Part shown: positions 14,560-23,826 of the stretch, one piece after another | Layout of the letters: every line of letters starts with the position of its first letter | How positions within the stretch are numbered: the first letter of the stretch is position 1 | Assembly: GCA_015233725.1 (NCBI GenBank) | Contig: JADFXD010000006.1 | Coordinates: 5,848-69,847, forward strand | Direction: 5' to 3' | From: Nitrospirota bacterium | GTDB lineage: Bacteria; Nitrospirota; Thermodesulfovibrionia; Thermodesulfovibrionales; Magnetobacteriaceae | Length of the DNA: 64,000 nt | The notes under the pieces: generated by a model | Database searches by the model: none | The model's input: the letters and a program-made list of their open reading frames with translations, nothing else | What the model was told of the DNA's origin: nothing | Translations under genes and position numbers: made by a program

Positions 14560-15744
14560 ATGAGATATTTCGATCATGTGGCAACCAACCCACTGTTGCC
14601 GGAGGTACTGGATGCGATGATGCCGTATTTCAAGGAGCAGTTTGGCAATCCGTTGAGTCCATACGACCTTGGAATAGCCGCAAAGACGGCCATCGAGGAT
14701 GCCAGGGCGCAGGTGGCCGCCCTCGTAAACGCAAAGGCTGGCGAGATCGTCTTTACGTCCAGCGGCGCGGAGGCAAACAACTTTGCCCTAAAGGGTATAG
14801 CGCTGGCAAAGCAGCAATCCGGCAACCATATAATAACGTCAAAGGCCGAACACCACTCCATCATGAACACGGCACGGTCGCTGGAAAAGCTCGGCTTTGT
14901 CGTGACCTACATCCCCGTGGATAAATACGGCCTCGTAGACCCCAAAGACGTAGAAAAGGCTATAATAAAGGACACAACCGTTATCTCCATCATACACGCC
15001 TCAAGCGAGGTGGGCACAATAGAGCCGATCAAGGAGATAGCCGCATTGGCCAAGGCTCACAATGTGACGCTTCACGTTGACAGCGTTGCCGCCGTGGGTG
15101 CTATACCCGTTGACGTGGCGGCTCTTGGGGTTGATCTCATGAGCATGACGGCGCATCAGTTCTATGGCCCCAAGGGGGCCGGGGCGCTTTACATAAGGGG
15201 TGGACAGCGAATACTGCCTCTGATCTACGGTGGAATCCAGGAAAACGGTCGGCGCGCCGGAACGGAGAACGTCCCTGCCATCGTGGGCATGGGCAAGGCG
15301 GCAGCTCTTGCCAAGCGTGACCTCGCCATTCGCACACAACACGTCACGAGGCTCAGAGACAGGCTCATCGATGTCATCGGCAAGGTGGAGAGCGTTCATC
15401 TGACGGGTCATCCACACAACAGGCTGCCCGGGCACGCGAGCTTTGTCGTTGAGTACATAGAGGGCGAGGGGATGCTCCTTATGCTTCAGGCTAAGGATAT
15501 AGTTGCGGCAAGTGGTTCGGCCTGCACGTCCAAGGCGTTGAAGGCCTCGCCGGTGTTGATCTCTATGGGGATACCATCAAGCATGGCTCACGGGTCGCTC
15601 GTCTTTTCGATGGGCATTGGCAATACGGAAGAAGACGTTGAGGCAATAAACGAGGAACTCCCTAAGATCATAAGGAGACTGAGAGAGATATCACCCTTTG
15701 GAAAAAGCGGGTGGGGAAAATCAGAGCCGGAGGCTACACACTAG
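14560..15744 (+). CDS. iscS: Cysteine desulfurase (IscS/NifS family)
   Basis: GGIQENGRRAGTENV; ASGSACTS catalytic Cys; the PLP-binding SxHK motif reads TAHQFYGPKG here. Confidence 0.9.
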   Translation: MRYFDHVATNPLLPEVLDAMMPYFKEQFGNPLSPYDLGIAAKTAIEDARAQVAALVNAKAGEIVFTSSGAEANNFALKGIALAKQQSGNHIITSKAEHHSIMNTARSLEKLGFVVTYIPVDKYGLVDPKDVEKAIIKDTTVISIIHASSEVGTIEPIKEIAALAKAHNVTLHVDSVAAVGAIPVDVAALGVDLMSMTAHQFYGPKGAGALYIRGGQRILPLIYGGIQENGRRAGTENVPAIVGMGKAAALAKRDLAIRTQHVTRLRDRLIDVIGKVESVHLTGHPHNRLPGHASFVVEYIEGEGMLLMLQAKDIVAASGSACTSKALKASPVLISMGIPSSMAHGSLVFSMGIGNTEEDVEAINEELPKIIRRLREISPFGKSGWGKSEPEATH

Positions 15745-15813
15745 AGAAAGAAAGGGGGCGCCTGGCCGCCCCCCCCTTAAACCCCCTGCAAGGGCACCAG
15801 TGCCCTTGACCCC
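15745..15813 (-). repeat. Repeat family A copy
   Basis: Reverse complement GGGGTCAAGGGCACTGGTGCCCTTGCAGGGGGTTTAAGGGGG…. Confidence 0.9.
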
Positions 15814-15912
15814 TTCTTACTAGGGGTTGAAGCTTGAGTTTATGGTGGATAGGGATTTTGTGAGAATAAAAAAACTTTGCAAAAAAATCAAGAGATTCAG
15901 TGGAGGTGAATT

Positions 15913-16299
15913 ATGTATAGCAAGAAGTTAATGGATCACTTTACGAATCCGCGCAATGTTGGTGAGATACCGGATGCCGATGGTGTCGGTATGGAGGGCA
16001 ATCCCACGTGTGGGGATACCATGAAGTTGTTTATAAAGGTTCACGATGACAGGATTGTGGATGCCAAGTTTCAGACGTTTGGTTGTGGAGCGGCCATAGC
16101 GGTATCCAGTATGATAACGGAGATGGCCAAGGGCAAGACGCTGTCGGAGGCGCTGACTATCACGAAGGAGTCTGTGGCCGATGCGCTGGATGGTCTACCC
16201 CCGCAGAAGATGCACTGCTCAAACCTCGGCGCTGATGCCCTCAGAAAGGCCATCGAGGATTACAGGGGCAGGCTTGCGGGCGCCCCTGCAGCAGGTTAA
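15913..16299 (+). CDS. iscU: Fe-S scaffold IscU/NifU N-terminal
   Basis: MYSKKLMDHFTNPRNVG; NPTCGD, FGCGAAIA and KMHCS. Confidence 0.95.
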   Translation: MYSKKLMDHFTNPRNVGEIPDADGVGMEGNPTCGDTMKLFIKVHDDRIVDAKFQTFGCGAAIAVSSMITEMAKGKTLSEALTITKESVADALDGLPPQKMHCSNLGADALRKAIEDYRGRLAGAPAAG

Positions 16300-16338
16300 A
16301 GAGGGAAGGAGGGGGGTGGCTCCGCTCTCCCTTTTCTC

Positions 16339-16490
16339 CTACCGCGGAGTAGCGTCGGGCAAACCGCCATTAAACGGGATGGTGGCGCCTGTGGTTGGTG
16401 TCTGCCGCGTAACCTCATCCAGTTGGGGCCAATCTCCTTCCACAGAGCCGGATTTGCGACCGCCATCAGAAAAGACTGCATCCGGGGCTA
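16339..16490 (-). pseudogene. Remnant of the 3' end of a bifunctional aldolase/short-chain dehydrogenase gene (copy 1)
   Basis: Frameshifted pieces PDAVFSDGGRKSG / LWKEIGPNWMR / TRQTPTTGATIPFNGGLPDATPR*. Confidence 0.65.
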
Positions 16491-16653
16491 ACCGCAGCAC
16501 CATCCACCGCCTCACCCGGCAGGTTGATAACGACCACATGAGCGCACTATTCGGGGACGGATTAGGACTGCTTAGACGTGTTACCTTTGATTCCTAACAA
16601 TTTTTTTCAGGGTAGCCTTTATCTCTTCGCTTACATCAGGATAATTCGTGTAT
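16339..16653. repeat. Left copy of the long imperfect direct repeat bounding the AT-rich island
   Basis: Aligns with 22695-23036; the last 77 bp (16577-16653 vs 22960-23036) have one mismatch. Confidence 0.92.
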
Positions 16654-18035
16654 CCAAGGGCATACGCTTTTAGTGCTAAGTCAAAGAATTTAATATCACC
16701 TTTCCCTGTCAGATAATCTTTATAAACGTTTAATATCCCTGAGAGAGGGGATTCTTTTAGGGTTTCCCAGTCCAAAAATGATATGTCACGGAGTCCAGCT
16801 TTATCATGAAACACCAGAATATCTACAGCCAACTTTGCGATATCTATTGCGATAGGGGCATAATCCGATCTTGCAAAATCTATTAGCGCAGGTATATTGT
16901 CCTTAATCAATATATTTCGTAAGTGTAAATCACCATGGATCAGTGCGCCTGATAACTCAAATGTATTAGCCAACGAGTTACTGTCAATTAAATCTGCCCT
17001 GCTTTCATCAAAACCTGCCCATTTTATTAATTCCTCACGAGGGATGAAAGTATCTCTCTTTGGCTTTTTGTACAGAGAGACAATTGTTTCTATGTGATTA
17101 GTGAATTTATCTAACCCTTCATCGTTTATGAAGTCCAAAGCTGTTTTTGCGTTTTCTTCAAATACATATGCTATATATCCAATACCCTTCCAGGCTACAA
17201 CATTATGATGCAACAGAGGAACCTGAAGGCTACGATTAATCCCTATTTGAAGCATTCGTTTATGGGCTTGGATTTCTTCTACGAGTTTACCTATATTACT
17301 ACTCCATTTCATAAGCCAATACGAAAATATCGGTACCCTATTATCCTCACCAGAGGCCACAACTATAGAAACATTAATACCTGAAAAACCACCTTTAATT
17401 TCGTTTATCGCTAAGGATGATCCACCCAATCCCAATAATACAACACCTTCTTTAAATCGCTCGTCCTCAAATTCATTTACTATATTTCTTGTGTGATCAC
17501 TCAACTTCAACTTGATTTTGCTAACTTTATTCAGTAAGTTATTTATTTCTACTGTAGACCTGCCTGTCATTGCTGCAACCCTCTTGATTGATAAATCTCT
17601 CAATATCCCATTCCATTTTTCGCTGTTGAAATCAGAGCCTATTTCGCCTTTTTGATCAAGAATAATGCTCTTGGGATAAAGACCATCAAAGTCAGATACG
17701 CTTAAATCGCTAATTATAGTATCATCACCTGTGATGTACCTACTTACACATGCAGCTGGTATCCAAGGAGCTATTTCCCTTATCGTTGGTAGTACAATAT
17801 TTAGTCCATATGTGTCATTACGATTTTTATTAATACCAGAGCCAAGTTCTAAATCGACAAGACAATAACTTACATTATCAAAAAAATCTTTGTTTTTGTG
17901 ACTATCTTGGATTTCTTTTAACCCGACCATTTCAATGTCTCGTTTTTCATATAACTGAGAAACAAGAATATTCTTAAAACTATCAAACCAAGAAATCTGG
18001 TCTTCTATAACAAGAATTCTTTCTTTGCCTCTCAT
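16581..18035 (-). CDS. Receiver (REC) domain fused to an APH/protein-kinase-like domain (TCAD9-like)
   Basis: ILVIED…LVDLEL…YPK receiver motifs; GGFSG loop, LMKW, HGDLHLRNILI and LIDFA kinase motifs; ATG 18035 preceded by GGAGGA, 1 nt after the upstream stop. Confidence 0.8.
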   Translation of the reverse strand: MRGKERILVIEDQISWFDSFKNILVSQLYEKRDIEMVGLKEIQDSHKNKDFFDNVSYCLVDLELGSGINKNRNDTYGLNIVLPTIREIAPWIPAACVSRYITGDDTIISDLSVSDFDGLYPKSIILDQKGEIGSDFNSEKWNGILRDLSIKRVAAMTGRSTVEINNLLNKVSKIKLKLSDHTRNIVNEFEDERFKEGVVLLGLGGSSLAINEIKGGFSGINVSIVVASGEDNRVPIFSYWLMKWSSNIGKLVEEIQAHKRMLQIGINRSLQVPLLHHNVVAWKGIGYIAYVFEENAKTALDFINDEGLDKFTNHIETIVSLYKKPKRDTFIPREELIKWAGFDESRADLIDSNSLANTFELSGALIHGDLHLRNILIKDNIPALIDFARSDYAPIAIDIAKLAVDILVFHDKAGLRDISFLDWETLKESPLSGILNVYKDYLTGKGDIKFFDLALKAYALGYTNYPDVSEEIKATLKKIVRNQR

Positions 18036-18036
18036 G

Positions 18037-21000
18037 TCATCCTCCATTATTTCTCTTAGTAGTATCAATATTATAGATTACTTGAATCTTAATATGTTTA
18101 TCCTCTTTTTTAGGGTCAAAATCCAACGCTGCTGAGTATTTCTGACAATATAGTGCAAATTGCTTCATTCCTCCTGTTGGTACAATTTTATCCTCCCATA
18201 GTATATTGTCTCGTACATACATTATGGAAGCAAGTTTGTCTTCTGTATAACCAGCAAAATCAAACTCCATCCAAAAAGTCTCCGGAAATAATTTTGGATT
18301 GTTGTTATTCTTACGGATAAACTCAACAGCATTATCAATAACATTCATGAGACAAGTCTGCAAATTTTCAAGAGTAAATAAGATACCTGGTTGATCGTGG
18401 CTTATTCTAAAACGTATGTCAAAATCTGAGATTGGCCACTTAGATGCCTTTATTTTTTCAATTTCCATTTTTACCTTTATTGGATTGACAAACAAAGTTA
18501 ATAAACCTTCTTTGAGTGCATTTCCATATCCGTCCAGTTTTTCAAGTGTATCTAATAACTCCTGAGTATATTTTTTTTCTATTAACTTCTTCATTATAAC
18601 ACTTGTACTTTTTATTGCTGTAACGGGCTTATCTATATCCTTTAGCTCTATTTTAATAGCATTCCAAAGAGAGTCAATATTTTTTTGTTTGTTTGTTTTC
18701 TTCAGTGATTCCACAAAAGCTAGTACACGATTTATACCCTCAGATTCAAGAACATTAAACAATCTTTCTATGCTCAAAAAATCTTTTATTTGAATAAGCA
18801 ATCGAAGGTTTTCAATGTTTGTGCCCCAAGGAGTGCTTCGTTTAAGCAACCAGAGAAGTTCCATAAAGTCTTCTACTGGTGTTTTAAGGGATTTTTTATT
18901 TTGTGGGTTAAAAAATCTTTTTGTTTGATTAATCAAAGATTTTTTCCAACTATCATCTCCAATGTTTTTAATATCTTTTAAATCTTCCAATTTAGCAAAC
19001 AAATAGCTATCAGGGTCTAACAAAGCCAGACAAATTAAATCCTCACACGCTTCTTTATTATCCGCTTCTATCGCCGATGAAAACATCTTTTTAAAACTGT
19101 TGGATAACATTTCTGGAAAGAGTCGGTATATCCCTAATAACATTTTTATAGATACCCTTTCTTTGTCTAATTTTTGAATGAGCACAGAAGCTGTATTCTC
19201 TATAGCTTTATATGCAGAGACTTTATTTTCTATACCTTCGTATTCGGTATGGATTATTTCTTTAACTTCTTCAGCAGAAAAATGTGAAGACATGAATTCT
19301 TCACCGACCATTTCAATAAAAGTCTCTTGACATTCAACGCTATTCCGTAACATCGTTTTTAATTTTTCTCTTTGCTCAAGGTTTCTTGCTGCCTCTTCGT
19401 AGTATCCCCTCATGATTACTTTTTCTTTATCTTTATAGGATAGAGGGGTAACGATACCTTTATCTAAATCTTCTAAGGTAATTTCCTGTTTGGTGAACAA
19501 TTTTGCACGTTTATTAACAATTTCTGACAGATAATTGTACGTTTTTAAGTTTTTTACTTTATGTTGTACGTCAATAATGACTTTCTCTAACTCACACATA
19601 GGACACGAATTCTTAGACGTATATGCTTTAATAGGAAATATGCTTAATATTTCAATGAAAACATTCTTGCAATCATAGACATCCTCACTATCATTCTTAC
19701 AATTCCCATAGCCTCTTATTTTGCGATAGAACGATAAGAGTGTTGAATCCATTCTGGCCACAAGAATATAAATATAAATATAAGTTGGCTTAAACCTATG
19801 GGCATACTCCAGGCATAACCTTGCTGTTTCACCCGTGATGATTGCTGGAATTATAAACAAAATAGCAGTGGGATTGTTACTTGACATTGCCAATGTTGGT
19901 GGTGGTGCTTTCAACTGATCAAAAGTGATAGCTTCATATTTAGCTATGCCCTTTGTAGATATATAATCAGCGATCAGGTTTTCCCAGCCTTTTTGTTCAT
20001 CTAAGTAAAAAACCGTTATTTCCTCATTGTTTATACCTCGCTTGGTATGGTCGGTAATGAGTATATTGTTCAACCGTTCCTCAAGTTTACCTTTATTGTT
20101 TAAAAATAATTGTGCAAAATACAGGAAATAATTATAATGTTTGCCTTTGTAAAGAATGTGACCAGGAAATATAGCATGACTTTCAATAGCCATATCTACC
20201 AATTCATTAAATGATATTAAGGATATTTCAACATTATCATATGATGTAGGAGCAAGAGTCCGTTTATCTATTATCAAGACCTTTGAATAGTCAGTACCTG
20301 ATGGTAGCTCTTTAATTGGATTGATGGATTTTTTCAATATCCTTAACACAGAGACTTTGTGAGGCCCATCTCTTCTTTCTATAAGTATATACTCATATTC
20401 GTCTACTCGAGCATCAAGAAAACAAAAGACTTTAATCTCATCGATATATGAGTCTGGCACCAACGATAAAAAATTCCTTACCCCTTTTGCCGTACTTACA
20501 ACATCGGTTAATATTAAAAACCCTTTATTTTTATCTCTACTATTAAAAGCATCTATAAAGGAGCTACGTTCTTTATCCTTAATTTTTTTACACCATTTAA
20601 CATCTTTTGTTTTCTCAGTCATGTAATCTGTAAATTCATAAAATGATTCAGTAATAACAAAAACCGTTCCAATGTTACGTTTAAGTAGTAATTGTCTAAA
20701 GTAATTACCAGACATATCTCTAGCAATTTGTTGTGAGACCAGTTTACGAATCTCATAATAAGCATGAGTATAATATTTTCCTTCTATCAGATAATGAGCA
20801 TTTGGATATTTAACAGGAGGCCTTTCTATTAGCTCTCTGAGCTCCTTGTTTAGTGCATTTATATAAAGTTCAAAGAGGGATTCCGTGTTGAATTCCAGAT
20901 AGTTGCCATAAATAGGTGTTTCTGTTTTAACAGTTGAGTCTGGAAGTGTTATATTACCAAATGTTATTGTCTCTGAAAAATCATCGCTACACAAAATAAA

Positions 21001-22458
21001 AGACCTGTATTCTTGAAGACGGATCACTCCATTTGGAGATGCCTGTTGTTTATTTTGAATAAATTCCCATTGTTTTAAAGCTCCTGACATTAGTTCATTG
21101 CGTACCCCAAAGAGTATAAGAGCACAATCATACCTTCTTATAAGTGAGAGTATAACCAAGAGTAATGAAAATGTCTTGGTATCCACTTTTAGACCGTCAC
21201 CTTGTAGACCGTCACAGAGTATCGCTACTTGTAAGATGTCCTTTTGTCTGCACTCCGTTATAACTTCTTCTATTCTTTTTTGAACTTTTAAAATAAAATC
21301 ACTACTTGTAGCAGATTGTTTATTAATATCCCCCAGCGAGATAGAAAGAAATTTCTTTGGTACATAATCGGTCGTTGGTTTTCTCCATTGTACCTGCTTT
21401 ATTTTATCCCGATTACGAGGCACACGCACTAAAACATGGGTACCAGCAATTGGGGCAAGGTTGCTCTTTTTCTTAATTAAACGCTTGGTCAAAATCGAAT
21501 AGTCTATACTAACTAAGACACTACCAGTTCGGACAATTATCTGACCCCCATAAATTCTGCATAACGATGCCACATGAAAAAGCCCTGTAGGGATGGCATA
21601 GGCATATTCTTCACCATCTTTTTTAAGTATCTCCGCTACTTTTTGCTTTCTTCTTTCCTCGTCACTGGTAGAACTAAACTCAAAGGCATATACGACGGTT
21701 TTTAAATCCTTAGACAGCTTCCCTTTTATATCAGCATCTGCTGGGATATAGCCTTCAGGGACAAAAGAGGCCAACTTTTTTAGTAACCCCTCCTTACCTG
21801 AATCAGAAACAACCACCTCTATATATGATCTACCTCCAAATGATGCCAGTATTCCGTGCCATTTGAAGGTATCATGTTTCGGATATTCACTGACAGCAAA
21901 CCTGACATCAACCCCTGCTCCATGAACGAAGGCATTATCCCCGAGCTCATGTAACAATATATCCTTTAAGTCCCCATCCCTGATCAGATCAACGTCATCC
22001 CCACCCCCAAGCAGTTGATTATAGGAGGATGGCCTACCCAATGACCGTTCATATGAACGCAGTTCCTCCGTGTTGGAAAAATCTTTAAACACTGCAATAC
22101 CATAATTACAGCCAGGTTTAATGTTCAGCGATAACGTGACCCCTATCTTTTTTAGCTCCTCAAAGAAGCTGATCCGCGAGAGAAACCATACGGCTTGATT
22201 TTCATCGGTGATCTCTGCACCTACCCTCAACTCCTCAGCCGGTAGAATAGCCTTTACCGTCTTGCCACGGTCTCTTATCATCCGGTGTATCCAGTCAAAG
22301 AGCAGACTGGTCTGAAGTACCCCTATCCATCGCATACCGGAAAAATCAAATGTTATAGAATCATGCTTCTTACACTCATCAACATTCTTAGAAAATGCCT
22401 CTTCATAATCCAGGAGATTACAAGACTCCGGTAACTTTATCACATACTCTCTTTCCAT
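18037..22458 (-). CDS. 1473-aa multidomain protein: STAS-like + GHKL ATPase + two PRTase-like domains + C-terminal degenerate GHKL
   Basis: ITFDFSGMRWI (STAS-like); HELGDNAFVHG / VSDSG / TGL / GTHV (GHKL boxes); LILTDVVSTA and FIIPAIITGET (PRPP-loop-like); CPMC; LMNVIDNAVEF…VRDN. Confidence 0.7.
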   Translation of the reverse strand: MEREYVIKLPESCNLLDYEEAFSKNVDECKKHDSITFDFSGMRWIGVLQTSLLFDWIHRMIRDRGKTVKAILPAEELRVGAEITDENQAVWFLSRISFFEELKKIGVTLSLNIKPGCNYGIAVFKDFSNTEELRSYERSLGRPSSYNQLLGGGDDVDLIRDGDLKDILLHELGDNAFVHGAGVDVRFAVSEYPKHDTFKWHGILASFGGRSYIEVVVSDSGKEGLLKKLASFVPEGYIPADADIKGKLSKDLKTVVYAFEFSSTSDEERRKQKVAEILKKDGEEYAYAIPTGLFHVASLCRIYGGQIIVRTGSVLVSIDYSILTKRLIKKKSNLAPIAGTHVLVRVPRNRDKIKQVQWRKPTTDYVPKKFLSISLGDINKQSATSSDFILKVQKRIEEVITECRQKDILQVAILCDGLQGDGLKVDTKTFSLLLVILSLIRRYDCALILFGVRNELMSGALKQWEFIQNKQQASPNGVIRLQEYRSFILCSDDFSETITFGNITLPDSTVKTETPIYGNYLEFNTESLFELYINALNKELRELIERPPVKYPNAHYLIEGKYYTHAYYEIRKLVSQQIARDMSGNYFRQLLLKRNIGTVFVITESFYEFTDYMTEKTKDVKWCKKIKDKERSSFIDAFNSRDKNKGFLILTDVVSTAKGVRNFLSLVPDSYIDEIKVFCFLDARVDEYEYILIERRDGPHKVSVLRILKKSINPIKELPSGTDYSKVLIIDKRTLAPTSYDNVEISLISFNELVDMAIESHAIFPGHILYKGKHYNYFLYFAQLFLNNKGKLEERLNNILITDHTKRGINNEEITVFYLDEQKGWENLIADYISTKGIAKYEAITFDQLKAPPPTLAMSSNNPTAILFIIPAIITGETARLCLEYAHRFKPTYIYIYILVARMDSTLLSFYRKIRGYGNCKNDSEDVYDCKNVFIEILSIFPIKAYTSKNSCPMCELEKVIIDVQHKVKNLKTYNYLSEIVNKRAKLFTKQEITLEDLDKGIVTPLSYKDKEKVIMRGYYEEAARNLEQREKLKTMLRNSVECQETFIEMVGEEFMSSHFSAEEVKEIIHTEYEGIENKVSAYKAIENTASVLIQKLDKERVSIKMLLGIYRLFPEMLSNSFKKMFSSAIEADNKEACEDLICLALLDPDSYLFAKLEDLKDIKNIGDDSWKKSLINQTKRFFNPQNKKSLKTPVEDFMELLWLLKRSTPWGTNIENLRLLIQIKDFLSIERLFNVLESEGINRVLAFVESLKKTNKQKNIDSLWNAIKIELKDIDKPVTAIKSTSVIMKKLIEKKYTQELLDTLEKLDGYGNALKEGLLTLFVNPIKVKMEIEKIKASKWPISDFDIRFRISHDQPGILFTLENLQTCLMNVIDNAVEFIRKNNNNPKLFPETFWMEFDFAGYTEDKLASIMYVRDNILWEDKIVPTGGMKQFALYCQKYSAALDFDPKKEDKHIKIQVIYNIDTTKRNNGG

Positions 22459-22611
22459 TAACCAACCTCTTTAACTGTCATGAAACCATTGTAATCAAAA
22501 TAAAAAAATATAATCCAGTGAATTTTACTTCACATGTTTTTGAGAGCAAAATTGTAGATCGGGAGTAGGTATGTATCCGCCTCGATTAATTGCATCAAGC
22601 TCACGCATAAT

Positions 22612-22694
22612 GGGGTCAAGGGGGCTGGCCTCCTTGCAGGGGAGGTCTGAGGAGGGGGCGGCCAGGCGGCCCTCCTTCTTTCTTTTCTTTTTTC
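22612..22694 (+). repeat. Repeat family A copy
   Basis: GGGGTCAAGGGGGCTGGCCTCCTTGCAGGGGAGGTCTGAGGAGGGGG…CCCTCCTTCTT. Confidence 0.9.
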
Positions 22695-23036
22695 TTACCG
22701 CGGGTGGCATCAGGCAATCCGCCATCGACGGGGATGGTGGCCCCTGTGGTTGGTGTCTGCCGCGTCGCGAAGAACAATACAGCGCTGGCTACGTGCCTTC
22801 ATCCGGTCGGAGCAGATCTCCTTCCTCAGAATCTGACCTGCGACCGCCATCTGCAAACACCGTATCAGGGGCTAACCGCACCATCCACCGTCTCACCCGG
22901 CAGGTTGGTAACAACCACCTGAGCGCACTATTCGGGGACGGATTCAGGACTGCTTAGGCCGTGTTACCTTTGATTCCTAACAGTTTTTTTCAGGGTAGCC
23001 TTTATCTCTTCGCTTACATCAGGATAATTCGTGTAT
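22695..23036. repeat. Right copy of the long direct repeat: SDR remnant copy 2 plus the duplicated last 24 codons of the REC-kinase gene
   Basis: Minus strand gives PDTVFADGGRR / LRKEICSDRMKAR / ASAVLFFATRQTPTTGATIP(V)DGGLPDAT and YTNYPDVSEEIKATLKKTVRNQR*. Confidence 0.92.
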
Positions 23037-23318
23037 TTATAGGCAGATAGTCCTGCATAAGTAAGGAGACTGTACTTAATAATGCTTCTATGGTTAGCGC
23101 ATGACCTCATTACCACTATCTTTGCAGGACTACCAGTTCTTTAATTGCCCTGTTTGTTCGGGGGCAGTGTCTTCAGCCGTTTCGGGGCAGTCACAAAATC
23201 CCTAAAACTCAACTTTTAGTGCCAGGGGTGGGTGTAAATTCCTGTAAAATGCGGCATGAAATATTTAAAGTAAATATTTAGCATTTATCAAGTAACTTTG
23301 TATAAATAAATTTTTTTC

Positions 23319-23371
23319 TTGACAGCGTCCTGCCATGTGGTATAAAGTGGATCATAGTGGTAGAGATGTGG
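23319..23371 (+). promoter_or_regulatory. dcw promoter with MraZ-binding GTGG repeats
   Basis: TTGACA (23319)-16-TATAAA (23341); GTGG at 23337, 23347, 23357 and 23368 (10-11 bp period), as expected for MraZ autoregulation. Confidence 0.8.
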
Positions 23372-23826
23372 TAGGGTTTTACGGCAGACATAATTTAAAG
23401 GTCGATGACAAGGGCAGGATCGTGATACCTGCTCAGTTCCGAGACGTCATAAGGGGCAACTACGGCAAAAAGATATTTATAACCTGTGCCGTTAGTGACG
23501 AGTGTCTACAGGTGTTTCCCGACAAGGAATGGGAGGCGCTGATGACTAAGGTAAACGCGTTACCAAGGTCAAGCGATGCCGTGAAGTATTTTATGAGAAA
23601 GGTTGTCGGTTCGGCCTGTGAGAGCTCCTTTGACAATCATGGCAGGGTCGTTATCCCTCCCATACTAAGGGATGAGGTCGGCATAGCGTTGGATGGCGAG
23701 GTCGTACTAACTGGCCTCAACGACAGGATCGAGGTGTGGGAGAGACAGAGGTGGGAGAAGATGTTCAGGCCTGACAGCAACGGGGTCAAGCAGTATGAGG
23801 CAGAGCTCGCAAAGATGGGGATTTAG
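23368..23826 (+). CDS. mraZ: Transcriptional regulator MraZ
   Basis: VDDKGRIVIP and FDNHGRVVIP repeats; start set to GTG 23368 because ATG 23335 lies inside the promoter. Confidence 0.95.
   Translation: MVGFYGRHNLKVDDKGRIVIPAQFRDVIRGNYGKKIFITCAVSDECLQVFPDKEWEALMTKVNALPRSSDAVKYFMRKVVGSACESSFDNHGRVVIPPILRDEVGIALDGEVVLTGLNDRIEVWERQRWEKMFRPDSNGVKQYEAELAKMGI

Follow-up and report, generated by a model that had tools for sequence, protein, structure and literature searches.

In a 64,000-nucleotide stretch of a Nitrospirota genome (assembly GCA_015233725.1, contig JADFXD010000006.1, positions 5,848 to 69,847 of the forward strand; here denoted the window, to which coordinates refer unless another locus is named), we identified a two-gene cassette on the minus strand. 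Gene 1 encodes a giant protein and gene 2 a partner in which a divergent receiver is fused to an APH/TCAD9-type kinase (Table 1). With a probability of roughly 60%, the cassette is a horizontally mobile conflict module, likely directed against phages or mobile elements, with a non-canonical two-component build; it is a credible candidate for a new immune system, as its horizontally moving family exchanges the output enzyme in the manner of anti-phage systems. The giant belongs to a family that has no Pfam, NCBIfam or PADLOC model, and we found no paper describing the combination of the giant with a receiver-kinase. An earlier note on this DNA, made from the letters alone, had likewise recognised no named system.

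The conflict-system reading draws in part on how the giant is paired. A word-indexed search detected eight relatives of the giant, and a profile search of 1.84 billion representatives detected 730 at E<=1e-3 and 231 at E<=1e-30. The family comprises ~730 clusters at 50% identity, mostly of 1400-1550 amino acids; those with names carry Ca. Magnetobacterium/Nitrospirae, Acidobacteria, Ca. Delongbacteria or Ca. Edwardsbacteria labels, and all are annotated as 'hypothetical'. A partner gene lies directly behind the giant at all ten loci with distinct giants and a readable downstream gene. The two genes usually overlap and the pairing is kept at 23-30% identity; the genes that follow the pair differ in every locus.

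Examination of the partners demonstrated that the enzyme fused to the receiver changes in distant branches of the family. Homologous receivers are joined to a metallophosphoesterase in a 521-amino-acid protein (P0192; Pfam Metallophos, 5e-15), found at one of the ten paired loci (L050), and to a PNP nucleosidase in a 435-amino-acid protein (P0195), which is preceded by an open reading frame (ORF) of at least 570 amino acids running into the contig end and followed by an Mrr-type gene. In PADLOC the PNP half matches PDC-M60C at 1e-85 (the model Effector (PN-superfamily) at 1e-15), and the Metallophos half matches PDC-S60 at 6e-11 (the model Effector (Endonuclease) at 5e-9). The conflict-system logic proposed in the earlier note is supported by the family, where the giant is coupled to a receiver-effector whose effector is a kinase, a metallophosphoesterase or a PNP.

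Among known systems, Detocs comes closest; in it, the sensor histidine kinase DtcA acts with a buffer receiver, DtcB, and a receiver-PNP effector, DtcC (Rousset et al. 2023, 10.1101/2023.01.24.525353). Detocs defence needs H645 of DtcA, and 80% of Detocs effectors are PNPs, a class reported to be toxic, with a minority of others (10.1101/2023.01.24.525353). Like Detocs, the cassette places two-component-style logic in a conflict role: a large cytoplasmic transmitter with a CA domain of the histidine-kinase type precedes a receiver that is joined to an effector enzyme. In both, the effector is modular, here kinase, metallophosphoesterase or PNP. Nevertheless, the cassette is not a member of Detocs. 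Of four features compared, the receiver-effector fusion is shared, whereas the phospho-histidine, a DtcB and a match to the PADLOC hidden Markov models are absent. The giant lacks a conserved phospho-acceptor histidine, the cassette has no TPR sensor and no free receiver like DtcB (two genes instead of three), and the giant adds a STAS domain, a SpoIIAB-like GHKL domain and two phosphoribosyltransferase (PRTase)-like domains. Furthermore, Pfam Response_reg does not recognise the divergent receiver of gene 2, P0195 matches PDC-M60C with its PNP half alone while its receiver half matches nothing in PADLOC, and the dominant effector of the family is an APH-type kinase. We therefore describe the cassette as a variant of a defensive two-component-like system, with a real chance of new signalling chemistry.

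The layout of the two genes, read from the ORFs and their translations, agrees with that given in the earlier note. Gene 1 ends with a TGA at 18039-18037, and the Shine-Dalgarno sequence GGAGGA, at 18046-18041 within its final codons, precedes the ATG of gene 2 at 18035. The public gene call (P0010, 488 amino acids, whose residue numbers we use for gene 2) begins at an alternative in-frame ATG at 18047; with either start, translation of gene 2 would be coupled to gene 1. The cassette is AT-rich, as the note had also stated, with a G+C content of 0.30-0.43 over 16500-22500 compared with ~0.47-0.59 in the flanks. On its left are genes for IscS and IscU (NifU_N, 8e-50), a pseudogene fragment separating iscU from the end of gene 2, and on its right are those for MraZ and RsmH. 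We searched four genomes of the same genus for the empty site. In these mraZ is present and iscSU does not lie upstream of it; since the iscSU-mraZ synteny is not common to the four genomes, the insertion boundaries are not obtainable by comparison. An Rfam scan of 15500-23500 gave zero matches, and a promoter and terminator scan of the locus gave nothing above shuffled sequence.

Single-sequence scans of the giant with Pfam, NCBIfam and PADLOC returned nothing useful. PDB sequence profile searches gave sub-threshold matches only (HPRT, E 0.68; prestin STAS, E 1.2) and, for the GHKL part, zero matches. The domains were resolved with AlphaFold (AF2) models, built from 47 relatives aligned in two halves (residues 1-760, pLDDT 89.2 and pTM 0.85; residues 761-1473, pLDDT 88.2 and pTM 0.72), the first of which we compared exhaustively with 48,161 PDB representatives using VIA-align. 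Conservation was scored on a local MAFFT alignment of 124 full-length family members.

Over its first 350 residues the giant joins a STAS fold to a GHKL domain of the SpoIIAB type, the combination seen in the SpoIIAA-SpoIIAB and RsbV-RsbW pairs. Besides RsbV, the STAS domain matches 4qtp_A (Z 9.3), RsbS (6jhk_A, Z 9.2) and SpoIIAA (1tid_B, Z 8.6); the RsbV, SpoIIAA and RsbS matches span Z 8.6-9.3 with a root-mean-square deviation (rmsd) of 2.4-2.8 A over ~94 residues. The GHKL domain superimposes best on SpoIIAB (Z 9.8, rmsd 3.1 A, 135/141 residues), then on histidine-kinase CA domains (Z 8-8.6) and on Rv1364c, the fused RsbU-RsbW of M. tuberculosis (3ke6, Z 8.0), and it shares the N-box form ExxxNAxxHG with SpoIIAB and RsbW. 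Its residues E171, N175, H179, D219, G292, L293 and G339 are 98-100% conserved, G221 and G224 fall within the 90-100% conserved set, and Pfam HATPase_c is detected in 7 of 42 members (best E 0.0026). Unlike partner-switching modules, the giant holds the STAS domain and the kinase in one chain within a 1473-amino-acid protein, the conserved pair includes no sigma factor or PP2C phosphatase gene, and the STAS domain has no conserved Ser/Thr at the helix N-cap, where position 46 is G/D and position 47 hydrophobic.

The GHKL domain is followed by a variable domain with an [S/T]427-[K/R]428 motif at a helix N-cap (K/R428 in 95% of members, S/T among the three residues before it in 77%), reminiscent of the phosphorylated 'DSS' site of STAS proteins such as SpoIIAA. 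ESM Atlas structure matches to stand-alone HATPase proteins reach residue ~480, and in one cluster DUF4325 is found in 16% of the members. As a lead only, this region may be another STAS/DUF4325-like domain; its hhalign comparison with the N-terminal STAS domain reached only 3% probability, an ESM Atlas feature search yielded no usable match and a per-member Pfam scan no match.

The central part of the giant consists of two PRTase-like domains. The first has the fold of type I PRTases (OPRT, APRT, XPRT) and PurR (Z 11-12.3, 160-180 residues). Its residues 534-718 match orotate PRTases at Z 11.4-12.3 (3m3h_A, 11.9, after the best match) and APRT, XPRT, UPRT and PurR at Z 9-11 (APRT and XPRT at 10-11), and Pfam Pribosyltran is detected in 13 of 42 members (best 8e-6). 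The second aligns with the first by hhalign over 162 columns (91.8% probability, E 7e-7) and by this alignment is a diverged duplicate of it. Foldseek matches it to the PRTase-fold chain 4paw_B, 'hypothetical protein HP1257' (E 1.2e-3); Pribosyltran is found in 11 of 42 members (best 1.3e-6) and PRTase-CE in 7 of 42. The position of the phosphoribosyl pyrophosphate (PRPP) loop is recognisable in both domains. In contrast to type I PRTases, the acidic pair is T-D in domain 1 (T651 in 66% and D652 in 88% of members, then C/S-T-A, V653 in 91%) and P-A in domain 2, which keeps the phosphate loop S/T875-G876-x-T878 and R902. The PRPP motif, two acidic residues and a T/S-G-x-T loop, is therefore complete in neither domain, its halves being split between them. 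With one acidic residue in the first domain and none in the second, catalysis is doubtful; that the pair binds a ligand is plausible. Also unlike type I PRTases, the domains stand in tandem in one chain and add an invariant His2Cys2 site. All 124 members carry H767, H774, C952 and C955; in the AF2 model the two histidines lie on a beta-hairpin and the two cysteines at a helix start, a geometry that points to a structural zinc site.

The helical region beyond the PRTase-like domains gave generic helical-bundle matches only. In the first helix of its four-helix bundle we noticed a semi-conserved motif, 'LLWLLRRS(T)xWG' (residues 1198-1212, ~18823-18867; R1207 in 56%, S/T1208 in 70%), which could be a phospho-acceptor or a contact site. 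The C-terminal module has the fold of a histidine kinase. Its CA part, residues 1321-1473, matches CckA (5idm_B, Z 13.0) and NtrB (1r62_A, Z 12.5), and Foldseek aligns ~240 columns to the whole DHp-CA unit of HK853 (E 5e-5). N1376 is 100% conserved, G1430 essentially invariant and D1417 present in 81%, and HATPase_c is detected in the C-terminal half of 14 of 41 members (best 6e-7). No histidine exceeds 25% in any column of residues 1190-1344, and reading the window giant (P0001) by eye, we found no histidine from ~1190 to H1358 in the CA domain. None of the searches, which included no dedicated transmembrane predictor, revealed a transmembrane or DNA-binding domain.

Together, the models (pLDDT 88-89) and fold matches recover the domain set that the earlier note had read from the letters: a STAS-like N-terminus, a complete GHKL ATPase, two PRTase-like domains of which the second lacks the acidic pair, a CPMC motif (containing C952 and C955), a second histidine-kinase-like ATP-binding domain, and no obvious transmembrane or DNA-binding domain. 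The features it had assigned to gene 2, a receiver with acidic pocket and phospho-Asp and an APH/TCAD9-like kinase with intact HGDLHxxN and DF motifs, were recovered as well. Aligned by hhalign with 14 true receivers from its own genome (91.5% probability, E 8.8e-7), the receiver matches them at the E/D-D pocket and places Asp65 on the phospho-Asp and Ser102 on the conserved Thr/Ser. Asp65 is invariant in receiver alignments of 24-26 sequences. Matches to PDB receivers are weak (E 0.03-0.4), and Response_reg gives 114 receiver matches in the genome, no listed one of which lies at gene 2.

The kinase half matches Pfam APH at 1.1e-9 (38.9 bits, cut-off 23.2) and TCAD9 (PF19974) at 3.2e-9; its TCAD9 score of 36.9 bits, like the 39.9 bits of a second partner (P0193), is just below the curated cut-off of 40, and precomputed tables give PF19974 for nearly all partner proteins. 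In PDB profile searches its closest match is methylthioribose kinase (MtnK, 1.6e-6), then choline kinase (0.01). K247, E258, H371, G372, D373, H375, N378 and D390 are invariant in 25 homologues (HGDLHLRN being residues 371-378), giving the APH/eukaryotic-like signature of an HxDxxxxN loop, a DFG-like Asp390, a beta3 Lys247 and an alphaC Glu258. Because these catalytic residues are invariant, the kinase should be active. The ternary conflict systems built on vWA-MoxR have APH/TCAD9 kinases among their rare effectors (Kaur et al. 2020, PMC7159879). The gene 2 kinase comes near these in its TCAD9 score of 36.9-39.9 bits across the two partners and differs from them in that it is fused to a receiver and its partner is neither vWA-MoxR nor a STAND NTPase.

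Complex prediction with residues 1011-1473 of the giant and gene 2 gave scores of 0.57, 0.54 and 0.58, classed as 'weak support', and the best of three controls scored 0.00. The partner pLDDT was at least 81 and contacts agreed by at least 79% between runs. Among solved complexes, 58 of 80 pass the mark applied, and among mismatched pairs 2 of 110 do; only 7 of the 80 solved complexes pass with a score of 0.60 or below, as do both of the passing mismatches. Since histidine kinase-response regulator complexes have been solved, resemblance to them may account for the pass. The earlier note had proposed that the signal is relayed by phosphotransfer. The C-terminal module indeed folds like a DHp-CA unit and, of the canonical two-component parts, the CA domain and the receiver Asp65 are present; the H-box, however, is absent. 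A canonical His-to-Asp relay is unlikely because there is no conserved histidine in the helical and DHp-like region.

On these grounds we propose that the giant may both sense and switch. Its STAS, variable and PRTase-like regions would read either a cue of infection or a ligand of phosphoribosyl or nucleotide type, and its state would be set as ATP is bound or hydrolysed at the two GHKL sites. The receiver of gene 2 would dock on the C-terminal DHp-CA-like module and, on a trigger, be switched at Asp65 via non-histidine phosphorylation or by a conformational or ligand change. The kinase so freed would phosphorylate a protein or small molecule that is essential to the host or the phage, bringing growth or phage replication to a halt. 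A bolder reading, which we put forward tentatively and consider unlikely, is histidine-independent receiver-gated immunity. Here the tandem PRTase pseudo-dimer with its His2Cys2 metal site and the two flanking kinase-type ATPases would sense infection, the receiver Asp would be switched by a direct GHKL-to-Asp or Ser/Thr relay or by a PRPP-derived phosphoribosyl signal, chemistry foreign to known two-component systems, and interchangeable effectors would be unleashed, a protein or small-molecule kinase among them.

The missing histidine is also accommodated by a second-messenger conflict system, in which the PRTase pseudo-dimer of an activated giant would make or tightly bind a PRPP-derived signal of phosphoribosyl or nucleotide-like nature. 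The receiver, not phosphorylated by a kinase, would read this signal as a switch that binds phosphate or nucleotide, activating the enzyme fused to it. PRTase-type domains are found in retron defence systems (PMC13712802), and polar residues are conserved in both domains of the giant (D652, D682, R684, D731 and T734; S/T875, G876, T878 and R902). We nonetheless regard this mechanism as unlikely. The acidic pair, T651-D652 in the first domain and P-A in the second, makes catalysis doubtful; the conserved DHp-CA-like and SpoIIAB-like modules, with their ATP-binding motifs intact, would be left unexplained; and the complex prediction, though weak, favours direct contact over a diffusible signal.

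Judged from its sequence and occurrence, the cassette is foreign and horizontally mobile. Within the genus, 2 of 5 genomes carry the giant, at sites that differ, and 0 of 36 other relatives searched have it. A sample of 400 further genomes of the phylum yielded none, and 72,556 plasmids and 50,697 phage records searched by tblastn contained zero matches. The family appears confined to uncultured environmental lineages. Pattern searches of species genomes with HGD[LF]HLRNI returned, among the matches listed, nine mostly unrelated APH kinases and are not informative on distribution. At ~11 independent loci the neighbours include IS21, IS200, IS110 and DDE transposases, tyrosine integrases with excisionase-type helix-turn-helix genes, TraG/TrwB, Type ISP and MmeI restriction-modification, Mrr, HipAB, MazE-PIN and phage-like nucleotide-modification genes.

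These contexts bear on whether the pair could instead serve ordinary, non-immune signalling, as a nucleotide or energy sensor controlling a small-molecule kinase for salvage or antibiotic modification and merely riding mobile DNA. The kinase structures closest to gene 2 are indeed metabolite kinases (MtnK, then choline kinase), the PRTase fold serves as a PRPP-sensing regulator in PurR (1o57_A, Z 9.7), and the window island lies amid housekeeping genes. Such a role is quite unlikely given that the swapped PNP and metallophosphoesterase domains match known or candidate defence models of PADLOC, occurrence across genomes is extremely patchy, transposases, integrases, restriction-modification and toxin-antitoxin genes dominate the contexts, and no conserved metabolic neighbour occurs at any locus viewed. 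Very unlikely, finally, is a selfish addiction or inter-element competition module in which the giant restrains a receiver-effector toxin and the pair serves the mobile element, not the host: strict pairing, overlapping genes, potentially toxic effectors (a kinase; the PNP class, 10.1101/2023.01.24.525353) and frequent residence on integrative or conjugative elements adjoining toxin-antitoxin loci would suit it, whereas a 1450-amino-acid, seven-region 'antitoxin' with two ATPase modules is far beyond known antitoxins in complexity, the window has no mobile-element backbone, and the idea overlaps abortive-infection defence, from which it is hard to tell apart by sequence.

Several observations weigh against a conflict module. 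The PADLOC scan gave no match, and no family, for either window protein (P0001, P0010), nor for P0002. The transmitter has no conserved phospho-acceptor histidine, and conservation of the receiver Lys breaks down in the most distant subgroup of kinase partners. The neighbourhood evidence is qualitative, coming from ~11 independent loci with no control statistic, and in the window the context is housekeeping (isc operon, dcw cluster), with neither an integrase nor a transposase adjoining the island.

The long direct repeats that the earlier note had seen bounding the cassette are real, ~315 bp in length with 77-94% identity between 16349-16662 and 22704-23045. The minus strand of the right copy reads '...YKYTNYPDVSEEIKATLKKTVRNQR' and then a stop over 23040-22964. 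The GC-rich half of each copy is a decayed 3' fragment of an aldolase/short-chain-dehydrogenase (SDR) gene, and its source is the 3' end of an intact 694-amino-acid Aldolase_II + SDR paralogue on another contig of the same genome (C36; locus L024, 377-2461, minus strand). Since the junction between gene tail and fragment is common to both copies, it arose once and was duplicated later, likely because the cassette was duplicated in tandem or recombined with a second allele, after which most of one copy was lost. We considered the repeats as att sites of an integrating element and ruled this out, as they contain the tail of a cargo gene and a host pseudogene fragment. The repeats are thus a duplicated junction and not, as had been thought, a sign of insertion. 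Of the earlier interpretation as a whole, the unnamed, foreign and conflict-like character of the cassette stands; the His-Asp phosphotransfer and the repeats as a mark of insertion do not.

Near the cassette we also observed a GC-rich, partly palindromic element present as an inverted pair, at 15755-15833 after iscS and at 22592-22672 upstream of gene 1. A copy of 85% identity lies ~300 bp upstream of mraZ in a same-genus genome (L056, 792-865), and the element looks like a REP-type or terminator-like repeat of the lineage.

Two of the other loci are of interest in their own right. Directly 3' of one giant-kinase pair (L014, 12770-19215) is a compact, defence-island-like block of an HATPase_c_3 (MORC-like) gene, two unannotated genes and an MmeI-type restriction-modification gene. 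By an acidobacterial giant-kinase pair (L048, 11055-16111) we found a tyrosine integrase, thymidylate synthase, thymidylate kinase with HMUDK_hel and dCTP deaminase, which suggests a prophage or integrative element; this locus also encodes a 983-amino-acid Ser/Thr kinase with a beta-propeller. In Ca. Magnetominusculus sp. LBB02 (L039, 10001-10237), a 78-residue stretch shares 49% identity with the gene 2 kinase core; no giant gene lies close by, and the stretch is probably what is left of a lost cassette. ORFs of 806-810 amino acids in three sister-genus genomes (L017, L018 and L019, in G006, G016 and G012, respectively) match residues 569-669 of the giant weakly, at the start of PRTase 1 (E 1e-5 to 6e-4, 26-29% identity), and may belong to another PRTase-containing family.

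Table 1. Features of the cassette and its flanking repeats (window positions; residue numbers of the encoded protein)
Feature	Position	Residues	Strand	Basis or content
Gene 1, giant sensor/transmitter (P0001)	18037..22458		minus	ORF and translation, 1473 amino acids, seven domain regions
STAS domain	22123..22458	1-112	minus	RsbV 6m36_B, Z 9.3, rmsd 2.4 A over 92 amino acids
SpoIIAB/RsbW-like GHKL (Bergerat-fold) kinase-type domain	21403..22101	120-352	minus	SpoIIAB 1l0o_A
Variable alpha/beta domain	20869..21378	361-530	minus	AF2 beta-alpha-beta-alpha-beta-alpha
PRTase-like domain 1, motif LILTDVVST	20179..20859	534-760	minus	OPRT 3qw4_C, Z 12.3
PRTase-like domain 2, IIPAIITGET	19429..20178	761-1010	minus	hhalign to PRTase 1; Foldseek 4paw_B
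All-helical region including four-helix bundle	18682..19428	1011-1259	minus	AF2 secondary structure
Histidine-kinase-like DHp hairpin (no His) and CA domain	18040..18681	1260-1473	minus	Fold matches
Gene 2, receiver and APH/TCAD9-type kinase	16581..18035		minus	484 amino acids from ATG 18035
Divergent receiver, E/D-D pocket, Asp65, Ser102, Lys near 128	17643..18026	~8-135 (P0010)	minus	hhalign
APH/eukaryotic-like kinase	16584..17435	~205-488	minus	Pfam APH 1.1e-9
Left repeat copy	16349..16662			Gene 2 3' end (16577-16662) and 3' fragment of aldolase/SDR pseudogene (16349-16576)
Right repeat copy	22704..23045			Orphan final ~25 codons of a gene 2 copy (22964-23040) and frameshifted SDR fragment

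If the pair protects against phages, a large family, of ~730 clusters at 50% identity, would be added to bacterial immunity; that it has been missed by defence-island screens of cultured bacteria would follow from its uncultured lineages and from the lack of plasmid and phage matches. A kinase as an immune effector, natural swaps of kinase, phosphoesterase and PNP on one receiver scaffold, and a tandem PRTase/zinc module would each be novel for defence systems. The cassette also raises a sharp, testable question, how a receiver aspartate is switched without a histidine kinase, and if the proposed reading is true, the idea of defensive two-component systems would reach beyond Detocs to a transmitter without phospho-histidine.

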